From the IMG/VR virus record IMGVR_UViG_3300037067_004891, positions 288,001 to 352,000 of that record: a stretch of DNA of 64,000 nucleotides; one strand, 5' to 3'. Below, in pieces: positions 1 through 57,593 of this stretch. Origin of the DNA: a virus (lineage: Duplodnaviria > Caudoviricetes). Under the pieces are notes generated by a model. The model saw only the letters and a list, made by a program, of their open reading frames with translations, was not told where the DNA came from and ran no database searches. The translations under genes and the position numbers were made by a program. Positions within the stretch are counted from its first letter, which is position 1. Every line of letters begins with the position of its first letter.

Positions 1-231
1 TTTAATTCAAAAACATATTCATTTCTAATAGGCTCTGACTAACAACATATTAAGTGATGGTTTTATTACTTTTATGATTTTATTTTAACTAAGTTTTTAG
101 TTGAAAAACAGACAAATCAAAGAACTTAAAATAAAAACATATTTTATATATTAAAATGTTTTGATTTTGTTTTAAATTTTTGAAATTCATTCACGAAACT
201 AAAGATTTCGTGGTATTCTTTTATAAAAAAT
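1..231 (-). mobile_element. Non-autonomous IS200/IS605 mini-element, left-end portion (truncated by the window start)
   Basis: Left-end hairpin CACGAAA-CTAAAGA-TTTCGTG at ~192-212 is near-identical to those at 12729, 22812, 52422 and 55091. ATAAA (TTTAT on the minus strand) flanks it at 232-236. It shares an internal leader with the 52078 and 55072 elements. Confidence 0.75.
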
Positions 232-5298: not shown

Positions 5299-6732
5299 TT
5301 AATATCCTAATTTTTTAATATTATTTTTAAATTCTTCTTCTATTTTATTTCCTTTTGAACTATTTAAATATTTTTTAGTCCAACATAAATTATTCGGATT
5401 AGATGCTTCCTCTATACTAATACCTTCTATAAAACATTCAAATAAAGATTTTTTATGGTCAATAGTTGGATATAATTTACTTGTAGGGTGAAATGAAAAA
5501 TTATTTTTGATGTAATAATCATCATAATAATCATATCCGTCCCAATCGTTTATTAGTTGTTTTTTAATTTTCTTAATATACGTATTGTTCGAATTTCTAT
5601 ATTTTCTAAATTTTGATATATTTTCTTCCAATACCCAAACGTTGTTTAATTCATTTGTTTTTCTTATCTTATTTTTTATTTCCACAGATTGAAATGGGTT
5701 TTTAAAACCAAATTTTTCTATATTAGTTTTAATCCTTTTTATATCACCACATTTTTTACAACCACAACCACGTAGATGAATATTAGAAGATTGTTTAAAT
5801 TTTCCATGTATTGGGCATATAATAACACTTTTGGTAGTATTGTTTATATAAATAAATTCAGAATAATCATAAAAAACCCCATGAACTTTATTTGAGTTTA
5901 ATTTAAAATCTTCATAAGTTAATACACACCCAGCGCATTTTGGACAATTTGTGTTTTGATTTATAAAATTATCATAAGTTGCTATCCATTCATACCCATC
6001 AATATCACATTTTAAATATATTTTTGAATCAACATTTTCATGAATATACGGATATAATAAAGTATACTTTTTTTCTTTACATTTATTGTAAATTTTCATA
6101 TTTGTATATTCAGATGATAATTTTAACTTACCGCCACATTTTGGACAACCCTGTTTTAAATTTATAAAATTATCATAAGATATATTCCATTCATATCCAT
6201 CAATATCACATTTTAAATAAATTCTTGAATCAATATTTTCATGAATATATGGCTGTAATAATGTATAATTTTTTTCTTTACATTTAGTTAAAATTTTAAG
6301 TTCAGTTTCTTCTTGTGTTAATTTTAATTTACCACTGCATTTATGACAATTTCTATCTTTATTTATAAAATTTTTATAACTTGAAACCCATTCATATTCA
6401 TCAATATCGCATTTTAAATATATTTTTGAATCAACATTTTCATGAATATATGGCTGTAATAATGTATAATTTTTTTCTTTACATTTAGTTAAAATTTTTC
6501 CTTCTGCTACTTCCTGTGTCAACTTTAACGAACCACCACACTTTGGACACCCAACATTTCTCATAAAATTTTTATAAGATATATTCCATTCATACCCATC
6601 AATTTTACATTTTAAATTTATTCTCGAATTCCCATTATCATGAAAATATGGTTTTAATAAAATATAATTTTTTTCTTTACATTTATTTAAAACATTTACT
6701 TCTGCTACTTCTTGTAATATTTTTGATGGCAT
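5299..6732 (-). CDS. Homing-endonuclease-like protein with ~67-aa zinc-ribbon repeats and a C-terminal HNH-like domain
   Basis: Four KC.IDGYEW...CPKC repeats, a CPIHG unit and TIDH...NL...NSSKGNK; lies directly downstream of the topoisomerase. Confidence 0.7.
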   Translation of the reverse strand: MPSKILQEVAEVNVLNKCKEKNYILLKPYFHDNGNSRINLKCKIDGYEWNISYKNFMRNVGCPKCGGSLKLTQEVAEGKILTKCKEKNYTLLQPYIHENVDSKIYLKCDIDEYEWVSSYKNFINKDRNCHKCSGKLKLTQEETELKILTKCKEKNYTLLQPYIHENIDSRIYLKCDIDGYEWNISYDNFINLKQGCPKCGGKLKLSSEYTNMKIYNKCKEKKYTLLYPYIHENVDSKIYLKCDIDGYEWIATYDNFINQNTNCPKCAGCVLTYEDFKLNSNKVHGVFYDYSEFIYINNTTKSVIICPIHGKFKQSSNIHLRGCGCKKCGDIKRIKTNIEKFGFKNPFQSVEIKNKIRKTNELNNVWVLEENISKFRKYRNSNNTYIKKIKKQLINDWDGYDYYDDYYIKNNFSFHPTSKLYPTIDHKKSLFECFIEGISIEEASNPNNLCWTKKYLNSSKGNKIEEEFKNNIKKLGY

Positions 6733-6735
6733 TTA

Positions 6736-9700
6736 TTAATTTAATTTTTTAATTTCCCTTTTCAATTCTGATAAATCACCCAACCAAATTTCTTGTATAG
6801 TTTTTTTAGAATATTCTTCTAAATCTTTTAATTTATCCGATAATTGGTTTTTTAAATTATCATATTTTTCTTTAGATAGTGAATATATAACCATGTTTAA
6901 CAAGTAATCATAAGAATTATCTAACTTATCAAGCTTATTATTTTCACACTCTTGTTCAATATATTCTTTATTCTTATTAGATATCAAAATTTTATTATTA
7001 ATAATCAAATCAATAAAATTACATCTGTTTGTTAATATTTGGATATCCTTGTTTATTTTTCCAATTATATTCTGCCTACGTTGTTCATAAAAAGGTAAAC
7101 GGTTAATATAAAATTCATTAATTATATCATATACAGTATCATATTTTTTTATTTTACTATTTATATCAAATAAATGCATATTAGACATATTTATCCTCGA
7201 TGTTAATTGAAATAAATCATATAATTTATCATCTTTTATTGGATATTCTTTTGATAAATTGATTATTATATTAACGTCATCATCATTACATTTTTTAATA
7301 TAATTTTTAATGATTTTATTATCAATCAATTTATCTAAAAAATTATAGTAATTTTCATTCCAAGTACCAACTGGTAATTCAGTAATATTTAATTGATTAT
7401 CGTTAATTCTATTTATAATACCAGTTGTGATACAATTATCAACAGCTTCATCATATTGGATTTTACCTTTAAATTTATTATAAAAAGGTGTTAGGGTTAT
7501 ATTTTTTTTCTTATCTTTTAATTTATTTTCTAAATAAACAATCAAATCGTTTATATTAAATTTAGGTATAGTTGTTGAAAAACCCGTGCCTATCCCATTA
7601 CACCCGTTCACAAGTATTAAACATATACAAGGGATATAATATTGTGGTTCAACTATTTTACCATCCGATTCTAAATAATTTAAAAGTTCTTTATCAGAGT
7701 CTTTGAATATTGTTTTTGTTATTTGTCTTAATTCAGTATGAATATATCTTGCAGCAGCACTATCTTCACCACCATGTAACCGTGTTCCAAAACTACCAAT
7801 AGGTTCTATTAATGGCAAATTATTCGAACCCACGAAATCTTGCGCCATAGTTATTATAGCTTCTTCTAATGATTGTGGGCCATGATTGTAAATAGCAATG
7901 GACTTAACATACCCAAATAATTCTCCAACATTAATTTCACCACTTTTGTTTAATTTTAATAATGTGTATAATATTTTTCTTTGACTGGGTTTCAAACCAT
8001 CCATAATATTAGGAACGTTACGCACAACATCAAAAAGAGAATATTCTATAAATTCATTATTCATAAAACTTTCATAAGTGGTCTTTTGGGATAACTTATC
8101 AAAATTATTGTTGATATCATATTCACCCATCCATTTTTTTCTATCGTCAGCCCTGTTTTTTCTAAAAGCTAAATCAATTACATCTTTTGTTTTTTCTGGA
8201 TTAGTATAATGAAATTTAATTAAATGTTTATCTATATTTTCAAAAACCATTTTAACTTCATCCTTACTAAGAGTACCCAAACCTTTAAAATGTTTTATAG
8301 TATAACCCGTTAAATCATTAGTATCTTTCCATTTATCATAATCTTTTATTTTATAAAAATACTTATGCTTGCCATTTTTTGTTATTCTTAATATAGGGGT
8401 TATAAACTCATACATAAAATTATTCAATAGAGAAGGAAAGAACATTTCTATGTAATTTAAAATCAAACCTTTGATGTGATACCCATCACAATCGGCATCC
8501 GTCATTAATACCAGTTTACCATACCTTAATGACGAAGTATCAGTATATTTTTTACCATATTCCAATCCCAATATTTGTGCTATATTAGAAAGTTCTTCGT
8601 TTTGTTTTAATTTTGAAATAGATATATCACGAACATTTATCGGCTTTCCTTTTATTGGAAAAGACCCATAGTAATCTCTACCTGTATATTTAAACCCAGA
8701 TACTGCAAAACTTGATGCACTATCACCTTCAGTAATAAATAGAAAACATTTATCTGATTCTTTTGTGCCAGCTTTATTAGCATCTACTAATTTTTGAACT
8801 TTTGGTGTTTTATTATTTTTATTCTGAACTGATTTTTTTAAAGCTAATTGTTCTTTAAGTTCAATATAATCTAAAATTTCCTGAGTAATATCAGATTTCA
8901 GTATTTTCTTAATAAAATTATCAGAAATTTCAACGTCTTTAAAAGTTGACACTTTTGTATTTAATATTTCTTTAACCTGACTATCAAATTCTGGATTAAA
9001 AATTTTTGAATTTAAAAATAAAAATATTTTTGACTTAATATCATTAGGGTTTATTTCAAACTTATTTCCTCTTGAAAGAGAAACTTTTAATTTACTTGTA
9101 ATTTGATTTATAATATAATTAACATGTGTTCCCCCTTGTAAGGTTGCTAATCCATTAACTAATGAAATTTGTTCGAATGAATCAGTTGATGTTTTCATAA
9201 TACCAACTTCCCAGAAATCATTTATTTTTTCATAAATAATTTCTTGATCATCTGGCATGAACAATTTCATATAATCTTTAAAAGTTTTAATATTAATCAA
9301 GTTATTATTAAAATATACTTTGACATTCGGATTATAAGCAGCTATATCAATGGTTCTTTTTATCATTACGGATTTGATATCATCAGTTAATTCAGTGAAC
9401 CCAAACCGTTCATAATCTGGTAAAAAAGATATTTTGGTAAACTTCTTAGAAGTTGCTCTGATATGAGGTTTTGGTAATTTACCCTTTTTATCTGTTGATA
9501 AATTATCGGTGAATACTTGTTTATAATAATTTTTTCCATCGGCAGTTTCAACCATGAACTCTTTGGAGAATATATTACATGCCTTAGAACCAATTCCATT
9601 ACGCCCACCCCCAATACGTTGTTCTGTATCATCATAATTTTCGCCAGTTAAAAGATGACCAAAAATTAATTCAGGAACATATACTTTTTCGTCCTTATGT

Positions 9701-11057: not shown

Positions 11058-11190
11058 ATGAACTACCGCTAAACTAAAAGATTTAGCGGTTTCCTACTTC
11101 GCAGACTTCGTAACCTCCGTCTCCATAGGTGTACTCGCCAGTTCCTGACGAGAGAAGGTTTAAACCTTCTGTTTCAATATTTTTAGCAGC
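11040..11190 (-). ncRNA. TnpB omega/reRNA overlapping the tnpB 3' end (approximate bounds; predicted guide begins TTTAAATTATATTT)
   Basis: Established TnpB architecture: the scaffold ends at the right end (GTAGTTCA) and the flank supplies the guide. Confidence 0.65.
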
Positions 11191-12243
11191 ATTTAAATCT
11201 CTATTATGTTTCTGACCACATATCGGACATTCCCATTGTCTTATATTTAATGGTAAGTCTTGTAATATATGTTTACACTTATGACATGTTTTTGATGATG
11301 GAAACCATCTGCTTATCTTTACCAGTTGCTTATCATTCCAGTCAGATTTATATTTTAAATATGTTAAAAATGCCCCCCAAGACACATCGGATATTGATTT
11401 ACTTAGTTTATCATTTTTTAACATACCTTTAATATTCAAATCTTCACAACAAATAATATCGTAATGACTGATTAAACGGGTACTTACTTTATGCAGCATA
11501 TCATTCCGAGAATTGACTATCTTCTCATGAATTCTTGCTACTTTAATTCTTTCTTTATTTTTATTATTACTTCCCTTTTTTTTCCTACTTAAATGTTGTT
11601 GCTCTCTCTTTAATTTCTTTTGATATTTAATTGTGTATTTATGATTTTCAAATTTATTATCATCTGATGTTATTACAAAATCTTTTAAACCCAAATCAAT
11701 ACCTACCGACTTCCCTGTCTTTTCTTTCGGTTGATATTCAACTTCACAAAGAAAGCTTATGTAATATTTACCTACTGGTGTTTTTGAAATGGTGCAGTTT
11801 CTTATATTTGTTATTTCAACGTTCTTCTGATTTACTTTAATACCTTCTTTAAATTTGGGTAAGAATACCTTTTTATCTATTAGTTCAATGTGTTGAGGGA
11901 TATGGAACGAATTCTTATCTTTTCTGGATTTGAATCTTGGAAACTGGGCTAACTTTTTAAAGAAATTAATATATGCTGTATCAAGGTGTCTTAAAGAATG
12001 TTGTAATGATTGACTATTAACTTCTTTTAGCCAAATATATTCTTCTTTCTTTTTAAGTTCAGTTAAATATTCTGCTTGTTTATAATAATTTAAAGTCTTA
12101 TTACCTTTTAAATATTCATCTTTTCTCTGGTTTAAAAAATAATTAAAAATGAATCTATTACAACCAAAATGTTTATTCAACAAAATTTCTTGTTGTTTGG
12201 TTGGTTTTAATTCAAATTTATATGTCTTTTTTATAACCTTCAT
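11083..12243 (-). CDS. tnpB: TnpB RNA-guided endonuclease
   Basis: HTH N-terminus, RuvC motifs GIDLG / CEDL / RDLNAA and a CxxC..CxxC zinc finger. Confidence 0.95.
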   Translation of the reverse strand: MKVIKKTYKFELKPTKQQEILLNKHFGCNRFIFNYFLNQRKDEYLKGNKTLNYYKQAEYLTELKKKEEYIWLKEVNSQSLQHSLRHLDTAYINFFKKLAQFPRFKSRKDKNSFHIPQHIELIDKKVFLPKFKEGIKVNQKNVEITNIRNCTISKTPVGKYYISFLCEVEYQPKEKTGKSVGIDLGLKDFVITSDDNKFENHKYTIKYQKKLKREQQHLSRKKKGSNNKNKERIKVARIHEKIVNSRNDMLHKVSTRLISHYDIICCEDLNIKGMLKNDKLSKSISDVSWGAFLTYLKYKSDWNDKQLVKISRWFPSSKTCHKCKHILQDLPLNIRQWECPICGQKHNRDLNAAKNIETEGLNLLSSGTGEYTYGDGGYEVCEVGNR

Positions 12244-12301
12244 AACTTATTATATGTATATATTTACAAAAAGTTGTCAAATTTAGTAAATATTTTCAAT
12301 T

Positions 12302-12705
12302 ATGTCTAAGTATTACAGAGAAAACCACTCAAAGTATATAATTAAATGTCATTTAATATTTGTATGTAAATACAGGAAACATCTGTTATTTGGTTCTTTG
12401 GATATGCACATGAAACAAATTATGTTAGATATATCAACGAAATCTGATTTTGATATTGAAGTAATGGAAACTGATAAGAATTATATATTCATTTCTTAAT
12501 ATGTTATCCACCGAAATTATCATTAACTTCAATTGTGAGAAGATTAAAACAAATTTCAACTATTAATATCTGGCATCTATATCCAAATTATTTACAACAA
12601 CATTTTTGGAAAGAACACACTTTCTGGTCTGATAGTTACTTTGTGTGTTCAATAGGTGATGCAAACCCAGATAATATTAGGAAATATATTGAGCAGCAAG
12701 GTTAA
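12302..12705 (+). pseudogene. tnpA: Y1 HUH transposase TnpA, frameshifted
   Basis: HLIFVCKYRK start. A +2 insertion near 12485 falls in the HUH motif (reads NYIH after repair). The downstream frame gives FWSDSYFVCSIG...KYIEQQG. Confidence 0.9.
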
Positions 12706-12793
12706 TATATACTAAGAGTGAAATTCATCCACGAAACTGAAGATTTCGTGGTTTTCTTTCACAAAAATATAAATATATTTATAAATCTCTTAT

Positions 12794-15515: not shown

Positions 15516-17198
15516 ATGGTAGAATTCGAAGATGGTAAATATCAGCTTTATTATGAATTGAAATATGAACCCCGACAACAACAAATAGACGGGGTTAATT
15601 TTATTAAAAAAGCTATATTAACTGGTAATAAATATATGTTGTTGAACTTGCCCACTGGTGTTGGTAAGAGTTTCTTGGCTACTATGTTCATAAACTGGTA
15701 TCTAAATCATGTTAATGAAAAAGCTAAGTTTGATGTCCTGACTAATTCTAAGTTACTACAAGACCAGTATATAAAGGAATTTCCATATATACGGAATTTA
15801 AAAGGACGAGCCAATTATCCTTGTGACCCATATAATACAAATTGTGATGAGGGTATGGAAATTTGTACCGCTAAAAAGAAAAAATGTGATAGATGTCCAT
15901 ATTTGTTAGCTTTATCAAATTATATTGGAAGTCGAGTTTCAATGACTAATTTTCACATGTTTGATATTGCAAATATTTTCAGTACTTGTTTTAAGACTGT
16001 TAGAGAAAGTAAAGTTTTAATTGTAGATGAAGCTTCAGATTTTGATCAAGTTTTTTGTAATTATATGACAACAGAATTAAATGTTAATGTTTTTACAAAA
16101 TGTGGTTTCGAACAAACAAAAATAAATGAATATAAAAATATTATTTCATCTATTGTTGATATCACAACACTTGTTGATGTTATTATAAAAAATTTTTTAC
16201 CAGATTTGGATAAAAGAATTAAATATTTAAGATCAGAAATGTTGGATGCTGATCAACATAGTAAATCAACTCCAATTGATACATATAAAAAATGGGCTGC
16301 TCAGTCAAGAGAATGTTCTTCTAAATTTAATTCTCTGGATTTATTTATAAAAGAATTTCAAAACAATCCTGAAAATTGGTTTTTAGAAACTATTAATAAA
16401 TATGATAAAAGAAAAAAAGAATCTGGTGAATTTAAATCTTTGATTGTACAACCAGTTTGGGGAAGTGAATATATACCAAAATATGCTCTGAATCAATATG
16501 ACCATATTATATTTATGTCTGCTACCATATTAAATAAAAAATTATTTTGTTATATTAATGGACTGAATGAAGATATAACCAAATATTATGAAATACCTTC
16601 ACCATTCCCTGTTAAAAACAGACCTATTTATTATATCAAAGCTGGTAAAATGACTTATAAAGAAAAAGAAAATAGTTACAAATATCATTTTGATTATATT
16701 ATAAAAACTTTAAATAAATATAAGAACGATAAAGGTATTATACACACATTCAATTATGAACTGGCTACAAGGTTGAGTGATGACTTGAATAAAACGGAAT
16801 TTAAAGATAGAATTATTATTCATGATACTGCAAGTAGAAATGATAAATTAGATCAGCATATTAATAGTAAACTACCAACTGTTTTGATTTCTCCGAGTAT
16901 GATGATGGGTGTGGATTTAAAAGATGAATTAAGTCGTTTTCAGATAATAATGAAAATACCATATCCAAATATAAAATCTAAGTTGGTAAAGAAAAGACAA
17001 CAAACAAATCCAGATTGGTATCGATGGAAAACAATTGTAGATTTAGTTCAGCAATATGGTAGAAGTGTGCGTTCATCTGAGGACTGGGCTATTACTATCA
17101 TTCTGGATAGTTCTCTATCAGACATATTAAATTTTCACGGAGAATTTTTACCTAAATATTTTGTTGATGCTATTAAGATAATGAAGATTAAATATTAA
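15516..17198 (+). CDS. DinG/XPD (Rad3)-family SF2 helicase
   Basis: PTGVGKS, Fe-S-type Cys cluster (C..N C..C..CDRCPY), DEA, MSAT, GVD and QQYGRSVRS motifs. Confidence 0.9.
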   Translation: MVEFEDGKYQLYYELKYEPRQQQIDGVNFIKKAILTGNKYMLLNLPTGVGKSFLATMFINWYLNHVNEKAKFDVLTNSKLLQDQYIKEFPYIRNLKGRANYPCDPYNTNCDEGMEICTAKKKKCDRCPYLLALSNYIGSRVSMTNFHMFDIANIFSTCFKTVRESKVLIVDEASDFDQVFCNYMTTELNVNVFTKCGFEQTKINEYKNIISSIVDITTLVDVIIKNFLPDLDKRIKYLRSEMLDADQHSKSTPIDTYKKWAAQSRECSSKFNSLDLFIKEFQNNPENWFLETINKYDKRKKESGEFKSLIVQPVWGSEYIPKYALNQYDHIIFMSATILNKKLFCYINGLNEDITKYYEIPSPFPVKNRPIYYIKAGKMTYKEKENSYKYHFDYIIKTLNKYKNDKGIIHTFNYELATRLSDDLNKTEFKDRIIIHDTASRNDKLDQHINSKLPTVLISPSMMMGVDLKDELSRFQIIMKIPYPNIKSKLVKKRQQTNPDWYRWKTIVDLVQQYGRSVRSSEDWAITIILDSSLSDILNFHGEFLPKYFVDAIKIMKIKY

Positions 17199-17203
17199 AG
17201 TTT

Positions 17204-17239
17204 CTGAAATCACTAAGTCTTTAGCTTAGTGGTAGTTGA
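17204..17239 (+). repeat. Solo IS605 right-end hairpin
   Basis: GAAATCACTAAGTCTTTAGCTTAGTGGTAGTTGA is near-identical to the 52078 right end. Confidence 0.75.
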
Positions 17240-17342
17240 TGTAATATAAGAGGTATGAATGATGAAAGTCGCCAACAACTCGAAGATTATATAATTAAAC
17301 ATTAATATTTATTAATTAAAACATGTTTTTAATTTTTTTTTA

Positions 17343-21305: not shown

Positions 21306-21600
21306 TGTCAACTACCCCTTGGTTAAAGACCAAGGGGCTTGAACCGTGAGGGTTAAGAGTAATTAGTTGATTAGGTGGCTTTTAAAAATTAAAATTAATT
21401 AATTTTAAGTGCAGAAGTTTAAAGGAAAGTTAAAGAACATACCAAGAAATGCTTCACAAGTTTCTTGCTCTATAAGTTCACAGTTAAACAAAGAAGAAAT
21501 TCTTAGTGCTGTGAGTGGGTGCAAAGCCTTCGGCTTTGACACCAGACTGACTTTAAACAACACCGAAGTGAATGAACGTCAAACAAAGAACAGACAGGTC
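21290..21600 (+). ncRNA. IscB omega RNA (approximate bounds; 5' guide from the upstream flank)
   Basis: Structured, GC-richer region starting GTCAACTACCCC immediately upstream of the PLMP domain. Confidence 0.75.
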
Positions 21601-22851
21601 TTACCGACATATGTGTTCGTTTTAAGTTTAGAAGGTCAAATTTTAATGCCTACTAAAGCCTCAAGAGCAAGAAGATTCATTAAAAATGGTAAAGCTGTTA
21701 TTATTAAAAAATATCCTTTCACAGTCCAGTTGACTGTTGAGTGTGATTCTCACACTCAACCTATCTCACTGGGAATCGATACTGGTTATGGTTTTATAGG
21801 ATTTTCAGCTACAACAAAAACAAAAGAATTATTATGTGGGACACTTAAACTGGATGGAAAAACAAAAGAAAGATTAGATGAAAAAAGAATGTACAGACGA
21901 CTTCGAAGAAGTCGTCACCACTGGTATAGAGAACCAAGGTTTGATAACAGAAAAAGAAAAAATGCTTGGTTACCACCGAGTGTTGAAAGAAGATATCAGA
22001 CACATTTAAATTTAATTCAAAGAATTAAATGTTTATTACCTATAACAGATGTAGTTATAGAGACAGCTAAATTTGATATACAAAAAATTGATAGACCAGA
22101 GATAAAAGGAATTAATTATCAACAAGGTAACAGGTATGATTATCAAAACGTTAGAGCATATTTAATGGTAAGAGAAAAAGGTTGCTGTCAATTTTGTTCT
22201 AAAGATTTTAAAGGACAACCAGCTCATTTACATCATATTAAACCACGTTCTAAAAGAGGTTCTGATAAGACATCAAATTTAGCACTATTACATGAAAAAT
22301 GTCATAACATTTTACATGAGAAACATTTAGAGGATAGTTTAAAATCAAATTCTAAAAATTATAAACCGAATACTTTTATGTCAATCATAAACAAAAGATT
22401 TTATGTTGACGTACCAGAGGTGAAAGTGACCTTCGGTCACGTCACCTTTGTGAACAGAAACGCTTTAAATATTGAGAAAAGTCATTTCAACGATGCTTTT
22501 GTTATTTCGGGTGGTAGTAAACAAATGAGATCAAAACCTGTTAACATTATACAAAAACATAGAAATAATAGAGTTATACAACTGAATAGGAAGGGCTTGC
22601 GCCCTTCCATCAGAAAGGAAAGATACAAAATTCAACTTCTTGATTTATTTTGGGTTGGTAAGAAAAAATATATTTCTAAAGGTGTTATGAACAAAGGTTT
22701 GTACGTTACTTTTGAAACAAAGGAAAAGAAGAATTATATTAAAACAGAAAATGTAAATAAAATATACAATTTTGGTAGCTTTGTTTGGTGTTGAAAATCT
22801 GTGAAATTCATCCACGAAGCTAAAGACTTCGTGGTTTTCTTTCACAAAAAT
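21308..22851 (+). mobile_element. IscB-encoding IS200/IS605-family element (no tnpA)
   Basis: End hairpin TCAACTACCCCTTGG-TTAAAGA-CCAAGGGG. The other end (22801-22851) is near-identical to the TnpB element left end and is followed by ATAAA. Confidence 0.9.
21409..22794 (+). CDS. iscB: IscB RNA-guided endonuclease (true start probably the GTG at 21568 or 21613)
   Basis: PLMP-like ILMPT, RuvC GIDTG / IE / HFNDA, RRLRR bridge helix and HNH (HHIKPRS..GSD..SNL..H). Confidence 0.95.
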   Translation: MQKFKGKLKNIPRNASQVSCSISSQLNKEEILSAVSGCKAFGFDTRLTLNNTEVNERQTKNRQVLPTYVFVLSLEGQILMPTKASRARRFIKNGKAVIIKKYPFTVQLTVECDSHTQPISLGIDTGYGFIGFSATTKTKELLCGTLKLDGKTKERLDEKRMYRRLRRSRHHWYREPRFDNRKRKNAWLPPSVERRYQTHLNLIQRIKCLLPITDVVIETAKFDIQKIDRPEIKGINYQQGNRYDYQNVRAYLMVREKGCCQFCSKDFKGQPAHLHHIKPRSKRGSDKTSNLALLHEKCHNILHEKHLEDSLKSNSKNYKPNTFMSIINKRFYVDVPEVKVTFGHVTFVNRNALNIEKSHFNDAFVISGGSKQMRSKPVNIIQKHRNNRVIQLNRKGLRPSIRKERYKIQLLDLFWVGKKKYISKGVMNKGLYVTFETKEKKNYIKTENVNKIYNFGSFVWC

Positions 22852-22898
22852 ATAAAAATGTGTAATTTTTTTCATAACAAATTTATATTAGGATGAAT

Positions 22899-23565: not shown

Positions 23566-25005
23566 ATGAAAACAATGAAAAATTTAATCTTAGCTTTAAC
23601 CCTGATAACAGGGATGATTTTTTTTACAAGTTGTGAAAAAGATGATGATTTCAATCCAATTGATCAGATTGAAAATCCTATTGATACTGTTAATAACCCT
23701 ATTGATACTGTTAATAACCCTATTGATACTATCAATAACCCTATTGATACCGTTAACAATCCTGTTGGTTATGTTCGCACATATGTTCACGAATTTGATT
23801 TTGTTGACATCAGCAAACTTCAGATTTTCAAACAAACCGATGGTACAGTTGACTCAATTTTTAAATTCAATGATGTTGATACAACTTTCATTACTCCTGA
23901 GTTCGGTAAAATAACTGCAAAAGATGGTAGCAAAACTACAACCTTCTCCACTATCGAATCAATCGAAAACGTGGGTGACTATATGAAGATTACTGCCGAT
24001 TTCGCAACTGGTCTTAAATCAGCAGGTGCAATGTCAACTGTTATGGTTGAAAAAGAAACTGGAGAAATTTCAACTGTTGCCGAAACTCCTGTTACCGATG
24101 GTGAATATGTAGTGATACCTAATAACGATTGGACTTGGGTTAATAATGCTGGTATATCTGTTACATTTACTGATAACGCTACTACTAAAACTGGTTCGGT
24201 TATTAATATTAATACTGCTGAATTTATTAATTTGATAACTGCTAATATTGCCGATTTTTATAATACAACTGGTTATGGTGTATCTGAACCTTTTCAGTTT
24301 GCATGTTCAAAAACTGTTAAAGATGCAAATGGTAATGTTTATGGTTATGTTACCTTTTCTCCGAATTCAACCGATGCATCAAATTTTGTAACTGTTGTTC
24401 AACTTATGACTGGTTCATCATTAACATTAAATTATGTAAAGACAAGTAATAAAGCAGAAATTCATTATGTTAATTCTTTTACTCTTATCGTAAATGATAA
24501 TTTAGACTTAGTGACTTATGGTTACACACCTGATATGCGTTCTTTAGTAAAAGGTAACAAAATTATATCGCAGATTAATACAGGAACACTTGATAGTTAT
24601 ACTTGGATGAAAGGTTATATGTATGCTCCTTCTTTTACAATATATGATAAAAATAACAATACATTAAACGCTTTTGCTAATCCATCTAATGTAAGCGGTG
24701 ATGGTTATAACAATCAAAAACTTACTTCTAAGATGATTTTATTCGGTGACTATATTTATTATGTAACTGAAGAAAGTGGTTCTAATTATGTAACTAAGAT
24801 TCAGATTAGCACAATCAATACAACAAGTCAATTCAATGTTGAAAAATTAGGAACAAAAACAATCAACTCTGCAATCGAATCAGTATTTACAACAGAAAAT
24901 GGTTACTTCATCTTAACAAGTGGTACAACTAACTACTTTATTTATGAAGATGGTCATATGGAAACTAAAACTGCCACTGATGCAGGTGATGTGATTGAGT
25001 TCTAA
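23566..25005 (+). CDS. Bacteroidota-type surface lipoprotein with NPIDTVN repeats
   Basis: Signal peptide II ending FTSC, followed by EKDDD (LES-like); Thr/Asn-rich beta-type body. Confidence 0.8.
   Translation: MKTMKNLILALTLITGMIFFTSCEKDDDFNPIDQIENPIDTVNNPIDTVNNPIDTINNPIDTVNNPVGYVRTYVHEFDFVDISKLQIFKQTDGTVDSIFKFNDVDTTFITPEFGKITAKDGSKTTTFSTIESIENVGDYMKITADFATGLKSAGAMSTVMVEKETGEISTVAETPVTDGEYVVIPNNDWTWVNNAGISVTFTDNATTKTGSVININTAEFINLITANIADFYNTTGYGVSEPFQFACSKTVKDANGNVYGYVTFSPNSTDASNFVTVVQLMTGSSLTLNYVKTSNKAEIHYVNSFTLIVNDNLDLVTYGYTPDMRSLVKGNKIISQINTGTLDSYTWMKGYMYAPSFTIYDKNNNTLNAFANPSNVSGDGYNNQKLTSKMILFGDYIYYVTEESGSNYVTKIQISTINTTSQFNVEKLGTKTINSAIESVFTTENGYFILTSGTTNYFIYEDGHMETKTATDAGDVIEF
23653..23766 (+). 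repeat. 21-bp in-frame tandem repeat, ~5.4 copies
   Basis: AAYCCTATTGATACTGTTAAT units. Confidence 0.9.
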
Positions 25006-27153: not shown

Positions 27154-28390
27154 CTTGTTTTTCTTTTTGCTCGTTTTGGTATGTGTGAACATATTTCATC
27201 GAGCCAATTATGTTTTAATGCAGAATTATAAGCACCATTAAATATTTTTTCTATTTCTTTTCTGGATTTACATTTTAATGCTGCTTCTTGATATTTTTCT
27301 TTTGTCCAATATCTATTTGGTTTTTGTATTGAATCATATGAGAACATATTTCATTAAGCCACTGAAAATCACATGATTTTTTATAAGCAGTGCCAAATTT
27401 TCGATTAAATTCTTTTCTGGATTTACATTTTAAAGCTACTTCTTGACATTTTTCTTTTGTCCAATAATATTTTGGTTTTTGTGTTGGTAACATATGAGAA
27501 CATATTTCATCTAACCAGTTATTTTTTAAAGAACTACCATATGACCCACTATATTTTCTTATAAAATCTGTTTTTGATTTACATTTTAATGCAGCTTTTT
27601 TACAAGATTCTTTATTCCATTTCATATAACCACCTAATGCTCCAGCTTTGGCTTTATTTAATAAATTCCAATTGTTGTTTTTATATAAATTAATATAATA
27701 TTCTTCTTCAATTTGTGCATTTTTCACATCTAATAACTCAGTTAAAATTATATTTTTTGGTATCAAATTTGTTTTTATTATATGTTTTAAAACAGGGCTT
27801 TTTTTATTGTTTAAATGATATTTTTTTCTTTTTTCTATATTACAAGTTAAACCGATATACATTGATTTATCTTCAAATTCCCATGCATAAATAAATCTTT
27901 TATATATATTTCCTAATAATATCATATGAGAACATATATCATCTAACCACTTATTTTTTCGACTAACGGTATAAGCTGTTTTATATTTTGTACCAAATTC
28001 TTTTCTGGATTTACATTTTAATGCTGCTTCTTTACATCTTTCTAAAGTCCAATACCCCTTTGGTTTATGAATAAAAAACATATGCTTACAATATTCATCA
28101 AGAAGACCATTAATTCTGATAATATTATAAACTTTATTATATTCTTTTTGTAATTCAAATCTGTTTTTATAATTTGATGCGATTTCTTTACATCTTTCTA
28201 AAGTCCAATACCCCTTTGGTTTGTTAATATAATCTAAATGCGAACACAATTCATTAATCCATCTCTTTGAAACAATTTTATTATAAACAACTTTATATTT
28301 TTTATTTAATTCTTTTCTGGATTTACATAGTGATGCAACTTCTTTACATTTATCATATGTCCAATATCCATTTGGTTTTCTTTCTTTCAC
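27150..28390 (-). CDS. GIY-YIG-like endonuclease with YWTKE.C repeats; last repeat (27150-27347) frameshifted
   Basis: FIYAWEF...MYIGLT core and ~51-aa repeats; a 1-nt deletion near 27330 separates the final repeat. Confidence 0.7.
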
Positions 28391-31611: not shown

Positions 31612-32643
31612 ATGAGTAAACAAAAATATTGGATTAAAGAAAAATGTCAGGAAGAAGTATTAAAATATAATAGTTTCGCCGAATTAAAAGAAAAAAATTC
31701 AAAGGTTTATTATATTATATATGAAAATAAGTGGTGTTCAGAAGTATGTGCGCATTATTATTTAAATAGAAAACCTTCTAATTATTGGACAAAAGAAAGA
31801 TGTCAAGAAGAAGCATTAAAATATAAAACATGTAAAGAATTTAGAAAATTTTCTGGTAGTGCATATACACAATCTATTAAAAACAAATGGATATGTGATA
31901 TTAATAAGCATTTTTTAAAAACAAAACACCATAATAATTATTGGACAAAAGAAAACTGTCATATAGAGTCTTTAAAATATAATATAAAAACTGAATTTCA
32001 AAAGAAAAATTTAGCAGCATATTCAGCAGCCAGTAAAAAAGGGTGGATAGACGAAATATGTAAGCATATGTTTTTAATAAAAACCCCACATAAATTTTGG
32101 AATTATGAAAGGTGTCAAGAAGCAGCATTAAAATGTAAATCAAGAAAAGAATTAGCTAAAAAATATAATGGTGCATATAGTTCGGCTTTAAAACATGGTT
32201 GGTTAAATGAAATGTGCGTACATATGGAAACCACTGGTAATCGTTTTAATAGGTGTATTTATGTGTGGGAATTCGAAGATAAAACAACATATATTGGATT
32301 AACGTTTAATCTAAAAGAACGGAGCTATAACCATACACAAGATATTAATAGTCCAGTGTTAAAATATAACCAAAAAACAAAATTAATACCTATTTGTAAA
32401 CAATTAACTGAGTATATAAGTGTAGAAGAATCTCAAATTAAAGAAGATTTTTTCATTCAACAATATAAAAAATTAGGTTGGAATGTATTAAATAAAGTAA
32501 AAGGTGGTTCAACTGGGCGTAAAGAAAAATATTGGACAAAAGATAGATGTAAGGGAGAATCATTAAAATTTAAATCTAAAAAAGAATTTCGAGAAAAAAG
32601 TTGGGTAGCATATCAGAATATTTATAAAAACAAATGGGGTTAA
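31612..32643 (+). CDS. GIY-YIG-like endonuclease with YWTKE.C repeats, C-terminus cut by an IS607-like insertion
   Basis: CIYVWEF...YIGLT core; paralog of 27150-28390; ends mid-repeat at KNKWG*. Confidence 0.7.
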   Translation: MSKQKYWIKEKCQEEVLKYNSFAELKEKNSKVYYIIYENKWCSEVCAHYYLNRKPSNYWTKERCQEEALKYKTCKEFRKFSGSAYTQSIKNKWICDINKHFLKTKHHNNYWTKENCHIESLKYNIKTEFQKKNLAAYSAASKKGWIDEICKHMFLIKTPHKFWNYERCQEAALKCKSRKELAKKYNGAYSSALKHGWLNEMCVHMETTGNRFNRCIYVWEFEDKTTYIGLTFNLKERSYNHTQDINSPVLKYNQKTKLIPICKQLTEYISVEESQIKEDFFIQQYKKLGWNVLNKVKGGSTGRKEKYWTKDRCKGESLKFKSKKEFREKSWVAYQNIYKNKWG

Positions 32644-38831: not shown

Positions 38832-39341
38832 ATGAATATAATTAAAAAACATTTTATTATGACAGATAAAAGTGGCGTATTTAAGGAACAAGACATAAAA
38901 GTTTTTGAAGATAATTTAATAAAACTTAGTGATAAGTGTGAAAAAGAAGATAAACTTTGGAATTTGAAAATATCTAATTTATCACATCGATTTAAGACAA
39001 AAGATGGTGTAGAAATGGTTGATTTTATGGGTGATGTTTTAAATGAAAAACAAATGGTTTTAGAAGATATTAGGCAAACTGCTGATAATTTGAGTAAATG
39101 TTTGAAGAAAAAAAGAGAATTGGGTGAACAAATATCACAAATTTATTCTAATAACAATCAATTAAAAATGACTGATACGAGATTAAATAAAAAGGTAGAA
39201 GCGGAACTCAGTGTACATATTCGTCAAATAAACATTTATGAAATTCATATTGAACATTTAAAAGAAACAGCAAAAAACATTGAACAAATAAATTATCACA
39301 TAAAGAACCGTATTGATTTAATGGGTATTTTAAAAATATAA
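38832..39341 (+). CDS. uvsY: UvsY-like recombination mediator
   Basis: All-helical, C-terminal IEQINYHIKNRID pattern, adjacent to uvsW. Confidence 0.55.
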   Translation: MNIIKKHFIMTDKSGVFKEQDIKVFEDNLIKLSDKCEKEDKLWNLKISNLSHRFKTKDGVEMVDFMGDVLNEKQMVLEDIRQTADNLSKCLKKKRELGEQISQIYSNNNQLKMTDTRLNKKVEAELSVHIRQINIYEIHIEHLKETAKNIEQINYHIKNRIDLMGILKI

Positions 39342-39347
39342 AATTAT

Positions 39348-39545
39348 ATGGATGATAAAGATATAAGTGAACTTTTAACATTAATGCTTGGTAGAAACAC
39401 TTTTGATAATTCTATTTCGAGTTTTGAAACTGCTAAATCTTTAGTTTAGTTTAGTGGTAGTTCATTTGTTAATTTAAAACACATCTTACCACAGCATTTA
39501 TTTGAACAAAAAATTTTAAAATTCAAAGATTTCTTCCAATTATAA
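39348..39545 (+). pseudogene. Small ORF interrupted in frame by a 42-nt IS right-end hairpin (39423-39464)
   Basis: Removing the insert gives MDDKDISELL...SISSFVNLKHILPQHLFEQKILKFKDFFQL*. The insert carries a TAG and ends GGTAGTTCA. Confidence 0.55.
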
Positions 39546-51571: not shown

Positions 51572-52051
51572 ATGGAAGCTGATATTTGTTATGTTTCGTG
51601 GTTTGAATTTATCAGATTATCTGATTTATTAATCAAAAAAGTAAATAAAAAAACATACGATTCTATTGTATGTATTGGTAATGGTGGATTGATTTTAGGT
51701 AAGATAGTTAGTGAACAACTATCTTTGCCGTTGGCTGTTATTTCTGCAAAATCATATGATAACTGTGATTTTGAAAGAAAAAATACTGAAGTTTTAATTG
51801 GGTCTATTTCGTCAAGCTTTAAAATAAAAGGACATATTTTATTGATTGATGATTTGGTCGATGGTGGATTTACCATGAAAAAGGTAAAGGAACATCTTCT
51901 GAAAATTGAATTAGTTAAAGAAATTACTACTGCAACTTTATATAAAAAGTCTCATACAATTTTTATACCCGATTATTTCATTCAAGAATTAAATGATTGG
52001 ATAAAATTTCCATATGAAAAATATGAATTTCACAAAGAGAACGTTGTGTAA
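51572..52051 (+). CDS. Type I phosphoribosyltransferase (purine PRTase-like)
   Basis: GGL, LLIDDLVDGGFTM (PRPP loop), PDY and W..FPYE motifs. Confidence 0.85.
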   Translation: MEADICYVSWFEFIRLSDLLIKKVNKKTYDSIVCIGNGGLILGKIVSEQLSLPLAVISAKSYDNCDFERKNTEVLIGSISSSFKIKGHILLIDDLVDGGFTMKKVKEHLLKIELVKEITTATLYKKSHTIFIPDYFIQELNDWIKFPYEKYEFHKENVV

Positions 52052-52077
52052 TTTTTATAATATAATTTATAATATTA

Positions 52078-52463
52078 TGAACTACCACTAAGCTAAAGAC
52101 TTAGTGGTTTCAGGAAATAAATTCCGTCTCTTTAAATGCTTCACAGACTGTGCTTTATATATAACTTAAAAGTTAAAAAGTCTTAATTATCTCCACATTC
52201 GTAATCAGTCGTTCCAACTGATGTATATTTTTAAATTAAATTTAAAAATTAGTTACTACTTTTTGATTTTACTTGAAACAAGATTTTTCGTTTCAAAACC
52301 AAATTAAATCAAAGAACTTAAGTTAAAAAACTTATTTTCGTTTCTAACTATATTTTTTATATTAAAATATTTTAATAAAGTTTTAAATTATTTAGTTTAT
52401 TTTACTATTTTTGAAATTCATCCACGAAGCTAAAAGACTTCGTGGTTCTTTTTCAATAAAAAT
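52078..52463 (-). mobile_element. Non-autonomous IS605 mini-element retaining an omega-RNA scaffold
   Basis: Left-end hairpin at 52422-52445; tnpB-3'-like CAGTTGGAACGACTG...GGAG...GTCTGTGAAG; right end ending GGTAGTTCA; no ORF. Confidence 0.85.
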
Positions 52464-52476
52464 ATAGAAATTTTAT

Positions 52477-52523
52477 AATTTTGTGAAAGAAAACCACTAA
52501 ATCTTCAGTTCAGTGGTAGTTCA
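52477..52523 (+). mobile_element. 47-nt collapsed IS element (left-end tip plus right-end hairpin)
   Basis: TTTAT|AATTTTGTGAAAGAAAACCAC (left-end tip) runs directly into TAAATCTTCAGTTCAGTGGTAGTTCA (right end). Confidence 0.75.
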
Positions 52524-52601
52524 AGTTATATATTAATACTTAAAAAAATTCGGATTTTTATTTTCACAAATTAATATATAAAGAAAAATAATATTTCTTT
52601 A

Positions 52602-54470
52602 ATGTATATTCAAAATAGTTCATTCTTATCTCCAACATTCAAAGTTATTCGACCATATGAATGTTCTATGGTTGTAATTGATGGTGTGGATACCGTAGGA
52701 AAAATATCTTTACAAAGTCTTGAAATAGAATATGATTCTTTTTTCACTTCTAAAATGACTTTAAGAGCAAATGAACAGAATAAACCAATTTTATATGGGT
52801 TTCTGGGTAATGATATAACTTTTTTAATGATCAAAGTTATATATGATAACGAAATAGACCCAAGATGTTGCAGTTCAACAGAAGATGAAAGATATATTGA
52901 GTATTTTTTTGCAGATGCCCCAGATATTATACGACCAATTAATCAGTTGATGATTTTATCGGGTAGTGAATCACATAGATTACCACAGGCTTTTTTAAAC
53001 AATCCACACAATTATCCTATTATAGTTGAAATAATGGTTGCAAGTCTTGTTTCTTTATCAGATACAAATATAGATACAAATATTACACAAGCTGTTATAG
53101 ATGGTCTTTATTATAATTCATTAATAACTGATGTTATTTTAAGTGGTTCTACACAATTTGAAATAATTAACGAAAATAATGATATTGTGTTTGTTTTACC
53201 AATTGAATTATTCGACACTGATGCAAATATTCATAATATCGAACAAACTGGTAACATTTTAACTATAACTACCGAAAATACACAAAAGGCTATACTTAAA
53301 TTTTTATCTATATGGGATGCTAATCAAGCTCATAGTAGATTTGATTGGATATTAGAAAATCCTGTTCATAGATATTTAACAAAAGATTCACCATCATCAG
53401 ATTTAATTGCTCCTGTTATGAATATAAACCCGTATGTTGATGGAATATTTAATAGTACTGGAGCTACAAGTGATCTACTGAGAACATATTATATTATTGA
53501 TGTATATGATGAAAGAGACGGTGAAATAGAGGTTAGTAATGTTGCAGTAATAATAAGGGAACATGATTTTATTACTACAATAAGTGAGATAACATCCGAA
53601 GGTATATATGATATTCTTTTTAGTATATCAGATATTGCTGGTAATGTGTCAAATATAATGAAAACTGCAATTTTTGATGCAACACCACCCGTTATTACTT
53701 TTACAACTGTTGCTGCTGGTAGTATCATACCTATGTCAATAACAAATGATAGTCAGTTGGTAATATCAGAAGGTTTGACTCAAATGGATGTTATCAGATT
53801 TTGTATCGATAGTGTTGTTGATAATATCGATGGTGTTATTGCTAATAGTGCTGTTACATTATCAATTACTGGAACTACTTTTCCAATAACAGTTGGTGGT
53901 TCGATACCAATTTCTTTTTCTATATCTGATATGGCACAGAATGAAACTTTAATTACAGGTAAAACGTTGCTTATTACTGATGATATTCCATCCGTTTTGA
54001 CAGATGGTATGATGTATTCAACTCCAACTGGTATAACAGGTGGTTTAGTAAGTGGTTATACATTCTATATTAATGGTGATTCTGGAACTACTTATAATTT
54101 ACAGTTTGTATCTGGTATTACAAAAGATAAGGATTTAGTAGTTGGACAATATTTTTCATTTACAATTATTGATGTTATCTTACCAAGTGGGAGTACGTAT
54201 CCAAGTTTAGATGCATATTTCTTAATGAATTTTGAAACTGGTACAACATTAGATTATTATGTTGATATGGCTAATGGTTTAGAGCCATTCTTTAATGTGA
54301 GTGGCGGTACAGTAGAACCTATAATTGACGGGTGTCTTGACACAATAGATTTAATTATACGTGGTGATTTTCCAACATCTACTTTACTTGTTAGTGGTTC
54401 AATTGAAGATCAACAGGGTAATGTGAATTCAATAATGTTTACTATGATTGTGGTAAACCCATTTGTTTAG
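52602..54470 (+). CDS. Probable structural protein with Ig-like repeats
   Basis: DLIAPV / DATPPVIT and D..DG...SD.AGN repeats; acidic and Thr-rich. Confidence 0.6.
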   Translation: MYIQNSSFLSPTFKVIRPYECSMVVIDGVDTVGKISLQSLEIEYDSFFTSKMTLRANEQNKPILYGFLGNDITFLMIKVIYDNEIDPRCCSSTEDERYIEYFFADAPDIIRPINQLMILSGSESHRLPQAFLNNPHNYPIIVEIMVASLVSLSDTNIDTNITQAVIDGLYYNSLITDVILSGSTQFEIINENNDIVFVLPIELFDTDANIHNIEQTGNILTITTENTQKAILKFLSIWDANQAHSRFDWILENPVHRYLTKDSPSSDLIAPVMNINPYVDGIFNSTGATSDLLRTYYIIDVYDERDGEIEVSNVAVIIREHDFITTISEITSEGIYDILFSISDIAGNVSNIMKTAIFDATPPVITFTTVAAGSIIPMSITNDSQLVISEGLTQMDVIRFCIDSVVDNIDGVIANSAVTLSITGTTFPITVGGSIPISFSISDMAQNETLITGKTLLITDDIPSVLTDGMMYSTPTGITGGLVSGYTFYINGDSGTTYNLQFVSGITKDKDLVVGQYFSFTIIDVILPSGSTYPSLDAYFLMNFETGTTLDYYVDMANGLEPFFNVSGGTVEPIIDGCLDTIDLIIRGDFPTSTLLVSGSIEDQQGNVNSIMFTMIVVNPFV

Positions 54471-54490
54471 TATTGAGTTTTTATATTTTT

Positions 54491-54524
54491 AAATCACCTA
54501 TTTTTAAATGGGTGATTTTTTTTT
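54491..54524 (+). terminator. Intrinsic terminator
   Basis: AAATCACCTATTT..AAATGGGTGATTTTTTTTT. Confidence 0.7.
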
Positions 54525-54595
54525 AATAAAATGAGGAAAAAAGTCATTTAGACCCAAATAAGTTAAATATATATAAACAAAAAAGTTATTATTTT

Positions 54596-55063
54596 ATGAA
54601 AAATTTAGATTTATTTAGATTAAAAGAAGGTTTAAATGACGTATCAAATTTAAAAGGTGTTAAATTTGCATATGTTGTTTTGAAAAATAAAAAATATATT
54701 GATGAAGAAATAGAATCTCTTCAAAAATCTATTGAAATGTCAGTTGATTTTCAAGAATTTGATAGGATGCGTATTAATCTTTGTGAACAACACTCTGAAA
54801 AAAACACAGACGGTTCTCCTGTTATTATAAATAATGCATATAATATTTTAGATAAAAAAACATTCGAAGATGATGTATTGAAACTAAAAAACAAATTTGT
54901 TGAAGCAGTATCTGAAAGAGACAATCAATTAAGAGAATACGATAAATTGTTAAAAGATGATTGTACAATATTCGATAAACTTGTTAAAATAAAAATAGAA
55001 TATATTCCAGATGATATTTCTTCTAATCAATTAGAAAATATTAAAGAAATTATTGAAGACTAA
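54596..55063 (+). CDS. Hypothetical protein (helical, possibly a tail-assembly chaperone)
   Basis: 155 aa; KFAY...KN...I..E..R..L pattern near tail genes. Confidence 0.55.
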   Translation: MKNLDLFRLKEGLNDVSNLKGVKFAYVVLKNKKYIDEEIESLQKSIEMSVDFQEFDRMRINLCEQHSEKNTDGSPVIINNAYNILDKKTFEDDVLKLKNKFVEAVSERDNQLREYDKLLKDDCTIFDKLVKIKIEYIPDDISSNQLENIKEIIED

Positions 55064-55071
55064 AAATTTAT

Positions 55072-55388
55072 GGTTTTCTTGAAAGAAAAACCACGAAGTC
55101 TTTAGCTTCGTGGATGAATTTCAAAATTAATTCAAAAAAGAAATAATTCAAAAACTTAAAACAAAACCAAAACCAAAACCAAAACAATTTAATATATAAT
55201 AAAAAAAGTTCTTTAATATATTTGATTTTTAACTAAAATCTTAATAAAATCTTAATAAAAAGTAATTAAATATTAAAATATTATCTGGTTCAGGAACTGA
55301 GTTGGATATAAAACAAAAACAGGTGGAGGCGTTATCATTAAGTCTACGAAACTTGAAACCTCTCAATCTTTAGTTTAGAGGTAGTTCA
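55072..55388 (+). mobile_element. Non-autonomous IS605 mini-element retaining an omega-RNA scaffold
   Basis: TTTAT at 55067-55071; left-end hairpin at 55091-55113; TCAGGAACTG...GGAG...AAGTCTACGAA...GAAACC..hairpin..GGTAGTTCA is homologous to the tnpB 3' end at 11059-11150. Confidence 0.85.
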
Positions 55389-55410
55389 TATATTTTTGTT
55401 ATATTAACTT

Positions 55411-55436
55411 CCCAACTTAATTAAGTTGGGTTTTTT
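55411..55436 (+). terminator. Intrinsic terminator 22 nt after the mini-element right end
   Basis: CCCAACTT-AATT-AAGTTGGG-TTTTTT. Confidence 0.7.
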
Positions 55437-55478
55437 ATTTTCACAAATTAATATATAAAGAAAAACATTTAAATAATA

Positions 55479-57308: not shown

Positions 57309-57593
57309 TTATTTAATCATCAATAATATTTTAAACAAAGATAGTAAAAAATATATTATACGTATAAAAATATTTTTATTTTAAAAAATTAATATATAAA
57401 AATATATTGAATAATTTGATTTTAATATATATTTTTATAAAAAACGCTAAAATTAAATATAGAGTTTCAATCGATGAATTAAATTATCGATTGTTTTCGA
57501 GTCAAAAATATAATAATTTAATAAATGTTTTAACCGATTTTTATTAATTTTTATCATTTTGATATTTAAAACAAAAGTAATTTTTAAAATATT

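Follow-up and report, generated by a model that had tools for sequence, protein, structure and literature searches.

IS200/IS605 mini-elements without open reading frames share a conserved leader module in the genome of a huge phage

The window analysed here is a stretch of 64,000 nt (bases 288001–352000) from the genome of a virus of the Caudoviricetes, IMG/VR record IMGVR_UViG_3300037067_004891 (here G000; 421,673 bp, 25.7% G+C). It contains three mini-elements, designated A, B and C, which have the ends of IS200/IS605 transposons and no protein gene, and in which a shared leader of ~70 nt precedes a putative omega RNA, the guide RNA of the transposon nuclease TnpB. The topoisomerase of this phage is closest to those of uncultured megaphages of 636–735 kb. 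Comparisons were made within a set of five related genomes totalling 1.37 Mb; G001, G002 and G004 are related contigs from the same IMG sample, and G003 is a complete phage of 640 kb which is syntenic with G000 at 75–83% identity. The public runs that contain the region are DNA runs of groundwater and landfill origin, with no RNA run among them. A megablast search of the region against GenBank phages gave no match, and the mini-elements go unmentioned in PMC12607003. Their features are listed below in window coordinates, with the strand in brackets.

55072–55389 (+): mini-element A, 318 nt, an insertion relative to G003
55067–55071 (+): target or transposon-associated motif (TAM) of A, TTTAT, flanking its left end (LE), 4 nt past the stop codon of the open reading frame (ORF) 54596–55063
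55091–55113 (+): subterminal LE hairpin of A, the same hairpin as in the LE of the tnpA/tnpB and IscB elements
55188–55199 (+): promoter-like motif of A, TTTAATATATA (also TTTAATATATAA), directed at the right end (RE)
55202–55270 (+): leader module of A, AAGTTCTTTAAT ... AAAAAGTA, with AAGTTCTTT at 55206; a degenerate copy (hidden Markov model (HMM) E=1.3e-6, covariance model (CM) 47.8 bits)
55280–55389 (+): putative omega-RNA scaffold and RE hairpin of A, with tnpB 3'-end homology; RE ends in GTTCAT at 55389
55390–55405 (+): predicted 16-nt guide of A in the RE flank, placed by analogy with ISDra2 (PMC10097598)
55411–55436 (+): intrinsic terminator of the gene 54596–55063, hairpin at 55411–55430; it would also end a transcript leaving A
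52077–52463 (-): mini-element B, 387 nt; target TCTAT at 52464–52468, minus strand
52354–52367 (-): promoter-like motif of B, TTTTAATATAAAAA, from the motif scan
52251–52323 (-): leader module of B, with the hairpin TTGAAAC/GTTTCAA seen in the fold (HMM E=8.7e-10, CM 69.5 bits)
52077–52226 (-): putative omega-RNA scaffold and RE of B, best match the 3' end of tnpB G003_38101 and of its G001 counterpart L037 (85%)
52061–52076 (-): predicted guide of B, assigned by position
1–231 (-): mini-element C, of which the window edge leaves the LE half; complete at G000 287849–288231
143–156 and 61–131 (-): promoter-like motif and leader module of C, the leader matched by HMM and CM

Read from LE to RE, all three elements display a common order: an external TTTAT or TCTAT, the LE hairpin, an AT-rich stretch, the motif TTTTAATATATAAA or a near variant, AAGTTCTTTGAT, a hairpin, AAAATCAAAAAGTA, a spacer, 110–150 nt resembling the 3' end of tnpB, and an RE hairpin ending in GTTCAT. 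They contain no ORF of 40 aa or more except for one 41-aa TTG frame on the opposite strand of A, and tblastn searches with TnpB, IscB and TnpA found nothing in any of them. The LE hairpins of the minis lie 0–3 mismatches from the LEs of the tnpA/tnpB and IscB elements and their REs 0–4 mismatches from tnpB right ends, and A, B and C each occupy an intergenic spacer just past a stop codon. An earlier, sequence-only reading of this DNA had described ORF-less elements with IS605 ends at these positions, where all of the features were indeed located; the end of A that it placed at 55388 is a genuine element end, which we give as 55389, a shift of 1 nt set by the placement of the cut. We conclude that A, B and C are probably non-autonomous IS200/IS605 derivatives of the kind known as palindrome-associated transposable elements (PATEs), here residing in a huge phage.

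In the terminator scan, LE hairpins and solo hairpins, each with a T-run behind it, register as intrinsic terminators when the strand opposite the element is read, at 52422–52445 (+), 55113–55091 (-) and 52517–52493 (-). In B, this terminator-like LE hairpin lies in the sense direction right after the ORF 51572–52051.

Evidence that the elements are mobile comes from their sites. TTTAT or TCTAT stands 5' of every LE examined, with no duplication of the target, and the orthologous sites of A and of another copy, H, are empty in G003. B-type copies that are 96–99% identical are found at two further sites in G001, which brings the near-identical copies of B to three sites, spread over two genomes. 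Summed depth over the minis in four public DNA runs is 3–7 times that of the neighbouring sequence, and the RE hairpin is joined there to several different flanks; a clean empty-site joint was not seen among the public-run DNA contigs over the region.

The wider IS200/IS605 content of G000 amounts to ~27 right-end-like and 9 left-end-like matches, five full and two or three partial tnpB genes, and one IscB with a HEARO RNA, and there are ~19 tnpB-like ORFs across the five related genomes. A second class of mini (E, F and I) consists of simple internal deletions, in which the scaffold comes after the promoter of the parent, the tnpB start codon and a few further codons, and the G001 locus L036 is a partial tnpB deletion. 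Minis D and E lie head to head at G000 119801–120451, ~75 nt apart with their LEs facing, where G003 has an ordinary gene; D is a leader-type mini that has lost an internal segment, and E arose from tnpB by plain deletion. There are also dozens of single-hairpin LE/RE chimeras of ~50 nt with neither leader nor scaffold, one of them in the window:

52478–52527 (+): ~50-nt single-hairpin LE/RE chimera after TTTAT, a minimal element

Solo RE hairpins with no LE or scaffold nearby occur at 17201–17240, directly after the helicase gene 15516–17198, and at 39441–39465, ~100 nt past the ORF 38832–39341. The IscB element at 21307–22864 comprises a HEARO RNA (21307–21577, 103 bits) and an RRXRR+HNH protein extending to 22794, and its end hairpin (22801–22864) matches the LE of the tnpA/tnpB element at 91% identity. 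A single TnpA and a single target motif seem to serve both the IscB and the TnpB elements here.

The 3' parts of the minis each best match one of several tnpB lineages. That of A best matches the 3' end of tnpB G002_89015 (the lineage of T144, a tnpB-only element of G000) at 88% identity, those of B and C are of the G003_38101/L037 type (84–85%), and that of H is of the T275/G003_373384 type (81–88%); G and the metagenome copy L122 display a fourth scaffold type, for which a parent tnpB was not found. The sequence-only reading had described the scaffolds as TnpB-type and different from each other, which agrees with these best matches. An interpretation of the B, C and D scaffold as an IscB/HEARO-type RNA on the opposite strand was rejected, as there is no HEARO match and clear tnpB 3'-end homology in G001 and G003. 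At gathering threshold or at E<=1, Rfam holds no family for the TnpB scaffolds either, HEARO being found at the IscB element only. The B/C-lineage full tnpB of L037 (G001 94939–96300) seems to start with ATT (or CTG) directly after an in-frame TAA, and is either a gene with a non-canonical start or one recently inactivated.

In the leader-type minis the tnpB homology begins just upstream of the first scaffold hairpin, at about -110 to -150 from the RE; these deletion boundaries were read by eye, since lenient local alignment over-extended in AT-rich sequence. In ISDra2, the 116 nt that immediately precede the guide form the functional scaffold, and what lies upstream of them is dispensable (PMC10097598). 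The start of the retained segment thus approximately coincides with that of the minimal functional ISDra2 scaffold. The first scaffold hairpin contains G-U and compensatory pairs, and its loop GGAAC is complementary to the GTTC of the RE, resembling the ISDra2 pseudoknot (both read by eye from the sequences). The TnpB of the full element in the window is a close homologue of that of ISDra2 (E 4e-77) and has kept the catalytic D, E and D motifs:

11058–12768 (-): reference full element, with TnpB at 11083–12243 and tnpA at 12302–12712; without the leader

Within the minis, the scaffold is preceded by a motif (TATATAAA) which behaves like a promoter signal of this phage. As a 14-mer it has 55 matches in the genome compared to ~20 in shuffled sequence, and 26 of the 55 lie 5–45 nt before the ATG of an ORF, compared to 4 of 23 for the reversed control. 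In 10 of the 11 copies it precedes the leader by 4–40 nt, and in most copies AAGTTC begins 4–13 nt after it, so that the leader module would form the 5' end of the predicted transcript. A terminator scan found no top-strand terminator between the promoter-like motif and the RE. A separate block of ~36 nt, TTTTCACAAATTAATATATAAAGAAAAA, is repeated at 52549–52590, 55427–55466 and 57372–57407, directly upstream of three consecutive plus-strand genes, and resembles a shared promoter or 5' untranslated region (UTR) of a structural-gene block.

Thirteen copies of the leader were seen. Six are in G000, five of them full (A, B, C, G and H) and one half-deleted (D); G001, G002 and G004 have one copy each, with a further B-type element cut at the start of the G001 contig; and four lie on other metagenome contigs, two of these on a 233-kb contig of another sample, which was searched in part, and two on the small contigs L119 and L157. 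In the 1.37 Mb of the five related genomes and on three more metagenome contigs, the HMM and CM built from the leader match ORF-less minis only, with E-values of 1e-6 to 1e-16. They find no leader in G003 or in the full element at 11058–12768, and none stands beside any of the ~19 tnpB-like ORFs of the five genomes or beside a tnpB in the loci that were fetched. The leader is also absent from 99 bacterial and archaeal loci that matched the seed pattern, and exact-pattern matches in bacterial and archaeal genomes, including one in a conserved Chryseobacterium/Flavobacterium gene, are chance occurrences inside coding regions. A search of Rfam 15 with six leader-type minis (both strands, E<=1) returned no family save one chance microRNA match, and we found no description of such a leader module in the literature. 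The sequence-only reading had noted a shared, ordered leader in A, B and C which the full element lacks, and had proposed that copies be collected genome-wide and aligned; this has now been done, and the module is both conserved and covarying, and within the sequences searched it is confined to minis.

In the leader, AAGUUCUUUGAU is invariant and single-stranded, and behind it stands a covarying hairpin between UUUGGUU and AAAAUCAAAAAGUA. Seven different sequences form its stem (ACTAA/TTAGT, GTTTTAA/TTAAAAC, TTGAAAC/GTTTCAA, GTGTTTTA/TAAAGCAC, ATCACTT/AAGTGAT, GTGTGA/TCACAC and GATCTA/TAGATC). In the model-fitted alignment both sides have changed in six of the nine pairs of the helix, with pairing in 93% of cells. 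The helix reaches a covariation score of 0.48, compared to 0.175 for shuffled alignments (0 of 500 reach the observed value) and at most 0.14 for slid controls, and the same helix is recovered by RNAalifold from an unfitted MAFFT alignment. In single-sequence folds the hairpin appears in 6 of 8 copies. Wobble pairs in the leader are G-U on the strand running from LE to RE and would read C-A on the opposite strand, which together with the orientation of the promoter-like motif indicates that the leader RNA runs toward the RE.

At least four scaffold lineages thus have this leader in front of them, although identity among the TnpBs of these lineages is only about 35–55%. The leader has therefore moved between lineages, as a single deletion event cannot explain such a distribution. 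The sequence-only reading held that the minis are not plain random deletion relics, and we agree: a covarying leader and a promoter-like motif accompany at least four scaffolds in several phages and metagenomes, always directed toward the RE, and the family is more than debris. That reading had also named an outcome that would speak against it, namely that the leader is simply the 5' region of a tnpB-only parent. This is the case for part of the arrangement, as the tnpB-only parents T144 in G000 and L037 in G001 have an LE followed by a phage-type promoter before tnpB (GATTTAATATATTAG and AAATTAATATATAGA, respectively); it is not the case for the ~70-nt module.

We propose that the minis likely function as trans-acting omega-RNA genes. 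Transcription from the promoter-like motif would yield an RNA of ~190–330 nt (190–235 nt for A, ~300–330 nt for B) which runs through the scaffold into the flank, with the guide being supplied by the RE flank. TnpB from a full-length element of the matching lineage would bind this RNA in trans and cut genomes in which the site is empty (TTTAT followed by the flank), and the mini would then be restored or copied by recombination. With ends recognised by TnpA and an RNA used by TnpB, such a mini would be a parasite of both proteins. Mini and cognate tnpB occur together in G001 and G002. Selfish homing of this kind in phages would matter mainly in mixed infections with empty-site genomes. The leader most likely serves to protect or mature the 5' end of an untranslated RNA, or to prevent premature termination.

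Several observations weigh against this proposal. The only tnpA of G000 (12302–12712) is frameshifted near the HUH motif and has YIH in place of HIH (Y replaces the first H), while that of G003 (144332–144730) is an intact gene of 133 aa, 90–92% identical to the broken copy; the sole tnpA of G000 being a pseudogene, excision and the need for rescue may both be rare. The cognate tnpB of A in G000 is truncated at about residue 281 and lacks a right end, that of B, C and D is absent from the genome save for a small remnant, and only H has cognate tnpBs within G000. In addition, the leader of A has a broken hairpin with an 11-nt duplication and does not fold (z=+0.54); a variant without the duplication is present in public DNA runs. 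The leader of D is half deleted and the LE hairpin of G is truncated, and it follows from the damage in A, D and G that decay also occurs. Finally, the leader of L157 lies after the motif TATATAAG without a clear IS605 LE, so that the leader may not be specific to IS605 minis and may have a wider use.

We tentatively suggest, as one possibility, that it is an undescribed huge-phage RNA module which makes a bare omega scaffold a self-sufficient guide-RNA gene and which has been spread by recombination among IS605/TnpB lineages, the minis being a distinct and selected guide-only class. Such a module would unite a promoter with a 5' domain that serves protection, processing or antitermination. 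Less likely than the trans-acting function proposed above is that the minis are decaying relics, that is, internal-deletion remnants of an unsampled tnpB lineage whose 5' UTR was the leader, which are moved by TnpA and whose scaffold and leader have no present function. The plain deletion derivatives E, F and I, the partial deletion L036, the phage-type promoter after the LE of tnpB-only parents and the damaged leaders of A, D and G are all in keeping with an origin of this sort. However, the leader stands at none of the ~19 tnpB-like ORFs or at a tnpB in the fetched loci, and its union with at least four scaffold lineages is not explained by a single deleted parent. Compensatory changes have kept the leader hairpin, and in every case the junction is placed immediately before the first hairpin of the scaffold. 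We consider it improbable that the leader RNA or the element DNA serves the expression of phage genes, whether as a mobile promoter/terminator cassette or as a small regulatory RNA. In this interpretation the LE hairpin would stop transcription on one strand, and the internal promoter would give an antisense or read-out transcript on the other. The LE hairpin with its T-run does score as a bottom-strand intrinsic terminator, and in B it is in the sense direction after 51572–52051, into whose 3' end a B transcript would run antisense; the three copies in the window are all intergenic and just past stop codons, and the L157 leader has a different context. On the other hand, insertion sites are not conserved between related phages, the invariant partner of the leader is a TnpB scaffold with an RE rather than any class of neighbouring gene, and A already lies in front of a gene's own terminator.

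The sequence-only reading went further, and envisaged a dispersed, mobile guide library for the TnpBs of the phage, with boxA-like motifs in the leaders and a new guide from each insertion. In its full form, the phage would keep these cassettes for its own benefit, with boxA/Nus antitermination, and its TnpBs would be directed at rival phages or at the host. We regard this as very unlikely. It is true that a hairpin stands behind GTTCTTTGA, in a layout like that of lambda nut, that huge phages of this group also have CRISPR-type systems, and that empty sites in related phages would be cut during mixed infections. However, when nine predicted guides were searched against the five genomes there was no other TAM-adjacent 16-nt match with fewer than 2 mismatches, the near-matches being AT-rich with 2–3 mismatches, so that the TTTAT-adjacent targets expected in related phages did not appear; the guides themselves are merely AT-rich flanks. 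The library would also need TnpBs which are missing for most of the G000 copies, the cognate of A being truncated and that of B, C and D absent. A strong terminator 22 nt past A, about one guide length, had been taken as part of the cassette, and this argument fails, as the same CCCAACTT...AAGTTGGG terminator lies behind the orthologous gene in G003 where no element is present. A is thus an insertion between the stop codon and the terminator of the gene 54596–55063; this terminator would end the predicted transcript of A ~45 nt past the RE, while the terminator scan found none after B and none was seen in the RE flank of C. As to boxA, we take GTTCTTTGA to resemble the boxA of low-GC bacteria, but a literature search for the boxA sequence was uninformative and gave no evidence for this, and the matches to the leader motif in bacterial genomes are in coding regions, with no boxA site among them. 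Protection or processing of the 5' end is at least as likely a role for the leader as boxA antitermination. The selfish interpretation, in which TnpA would move the minis and TnpB would be hijacked to retain them or to let them home, is also simpler than a guide library.

Among known systems, the closest to the minis are the PATEs, ORF-less palindrome-associated derivatives of IS200/IS605 elements in Geobacillus stearothermophilus, many of which are stated to code for omega RNAs that depend on TnpB from other elements (Meers et al. 2023; 10.1101/2023.03.14.532601). Both are multicopy elements without a protein gene, with LE and RE hairpins like those of coding elements; mobilisation by TnpA in trans, and omega RNAs that need the TnpB of others, are predicted for the minis as well. 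The minis differ in that they reside in huge-phage genomes, contain the phage's own promoter-like motif, and have a covarying 5' leader of ~70 nt which is common to different scaffold lineages and absent from coding elements. The concept of a PATE with an omega RNA is thus already published (Meers et al. 2023), and what is new is the combination of promoter and leader, together with the way in which this module has been shuffled among the scaffold lineages of huge phages.

Similarly, the omega RNA of ISDra2 TnpB (right-end element RNA, reRNA; 8BF8, 8EXA and 8H1J; Nakagawa et al. 2023, PMC10097598) has an RE scaffold that overlaps the 3' end of tnpB, as in the parents of the minis, a guide taken from the flank, a 5-nt T-rich TAM at the other end, a functional scaffold of ~116 nt and a possible pseudoknot between the loop of the first hairpin and the last nucleotides. 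It differs in being cut from the tnpB mRNA, whereas the minis have no tnpB and their RNA would start at their own promoter and leader.

Lambda nut sites and the boxA sequences of rrn operons and CRISPR leaders are antitermination signals. The minis resemble them in that an untranslated RNA would have, close to its 5' end, a short invariant single-stranded U-rich motif (GUUCUUUGA) and, beyond a spacer, a hairpin whose loop is A-rich; they differ in that the RNA of the minis is short. Altae-Tran and colleagues reportedly described stand-alone omega-RNA loci in 2021. With these loci and with CRISPR arrays the minis would share a guide RNA encoded apart from the nuclease; unlike them, the cassette is here a transposon with one fixed guide set by the insertion site, and there is neither an array nor adaptation.

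If the RNAs of the minis are made and loaded, they represent guide RNAs which have been uncoupled from the nuclease gene and given their own expression signals while still being mobile, which bears both on the origin of CRISPR-type guide genes from TnpB systems and on parasitism between transposons within the genomes of viruses. If the interpretation of the leader as a module is also true, the minis would be intermediate between omega RNAs still tied to a transposon and independent guide genes of the tracrRNA/crRNA type. The leader would then be a compact natural 5' module for omega-RNA expression, and could inform the design of TnpB tools. The minis would also account for many 'orphan' repeats in published huge-phage genomes, which have earlier been read as CRISPR-like or left unannotated.

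Other repeat-bearing loci were noticed in these genomes. G000 191010–192870 is a compact type V-like locus, in which a Cas12/TnpB-like gene ending in ...EEVL* is followed by ~250 nt of non-coding DNA and then by 7 copies of a 36-nt repeat, GATGGGTTAAACCACAAATTGAGAGGTATGCCCAGC, with spacers of ~30 nt. The 11-mer of the leader, AAGTTCTTTGA, occurs at the stop codon of this Cas12-like gene (G000 192272, kept in G003); as it is coding and ~0.65 matches are expected per genome it is probably there by chance, and it was not used. Locus L052 (G003, ~177.6 kb) is a CRISPR-like array with the repeat GTCTAATTCACTATATAAATTCCTACTATTGTAGGT. Within the window, several coding repeats that keep the frame, either in tandem or dispersed, lie inside large ORFs at 5930–6750, 27181–28363, 31624–32613 and 23653–23757; their units are of about 200, 156 and 21 nt, and those at 27–28 kb and 31–32 kb are inverted copies of each other.

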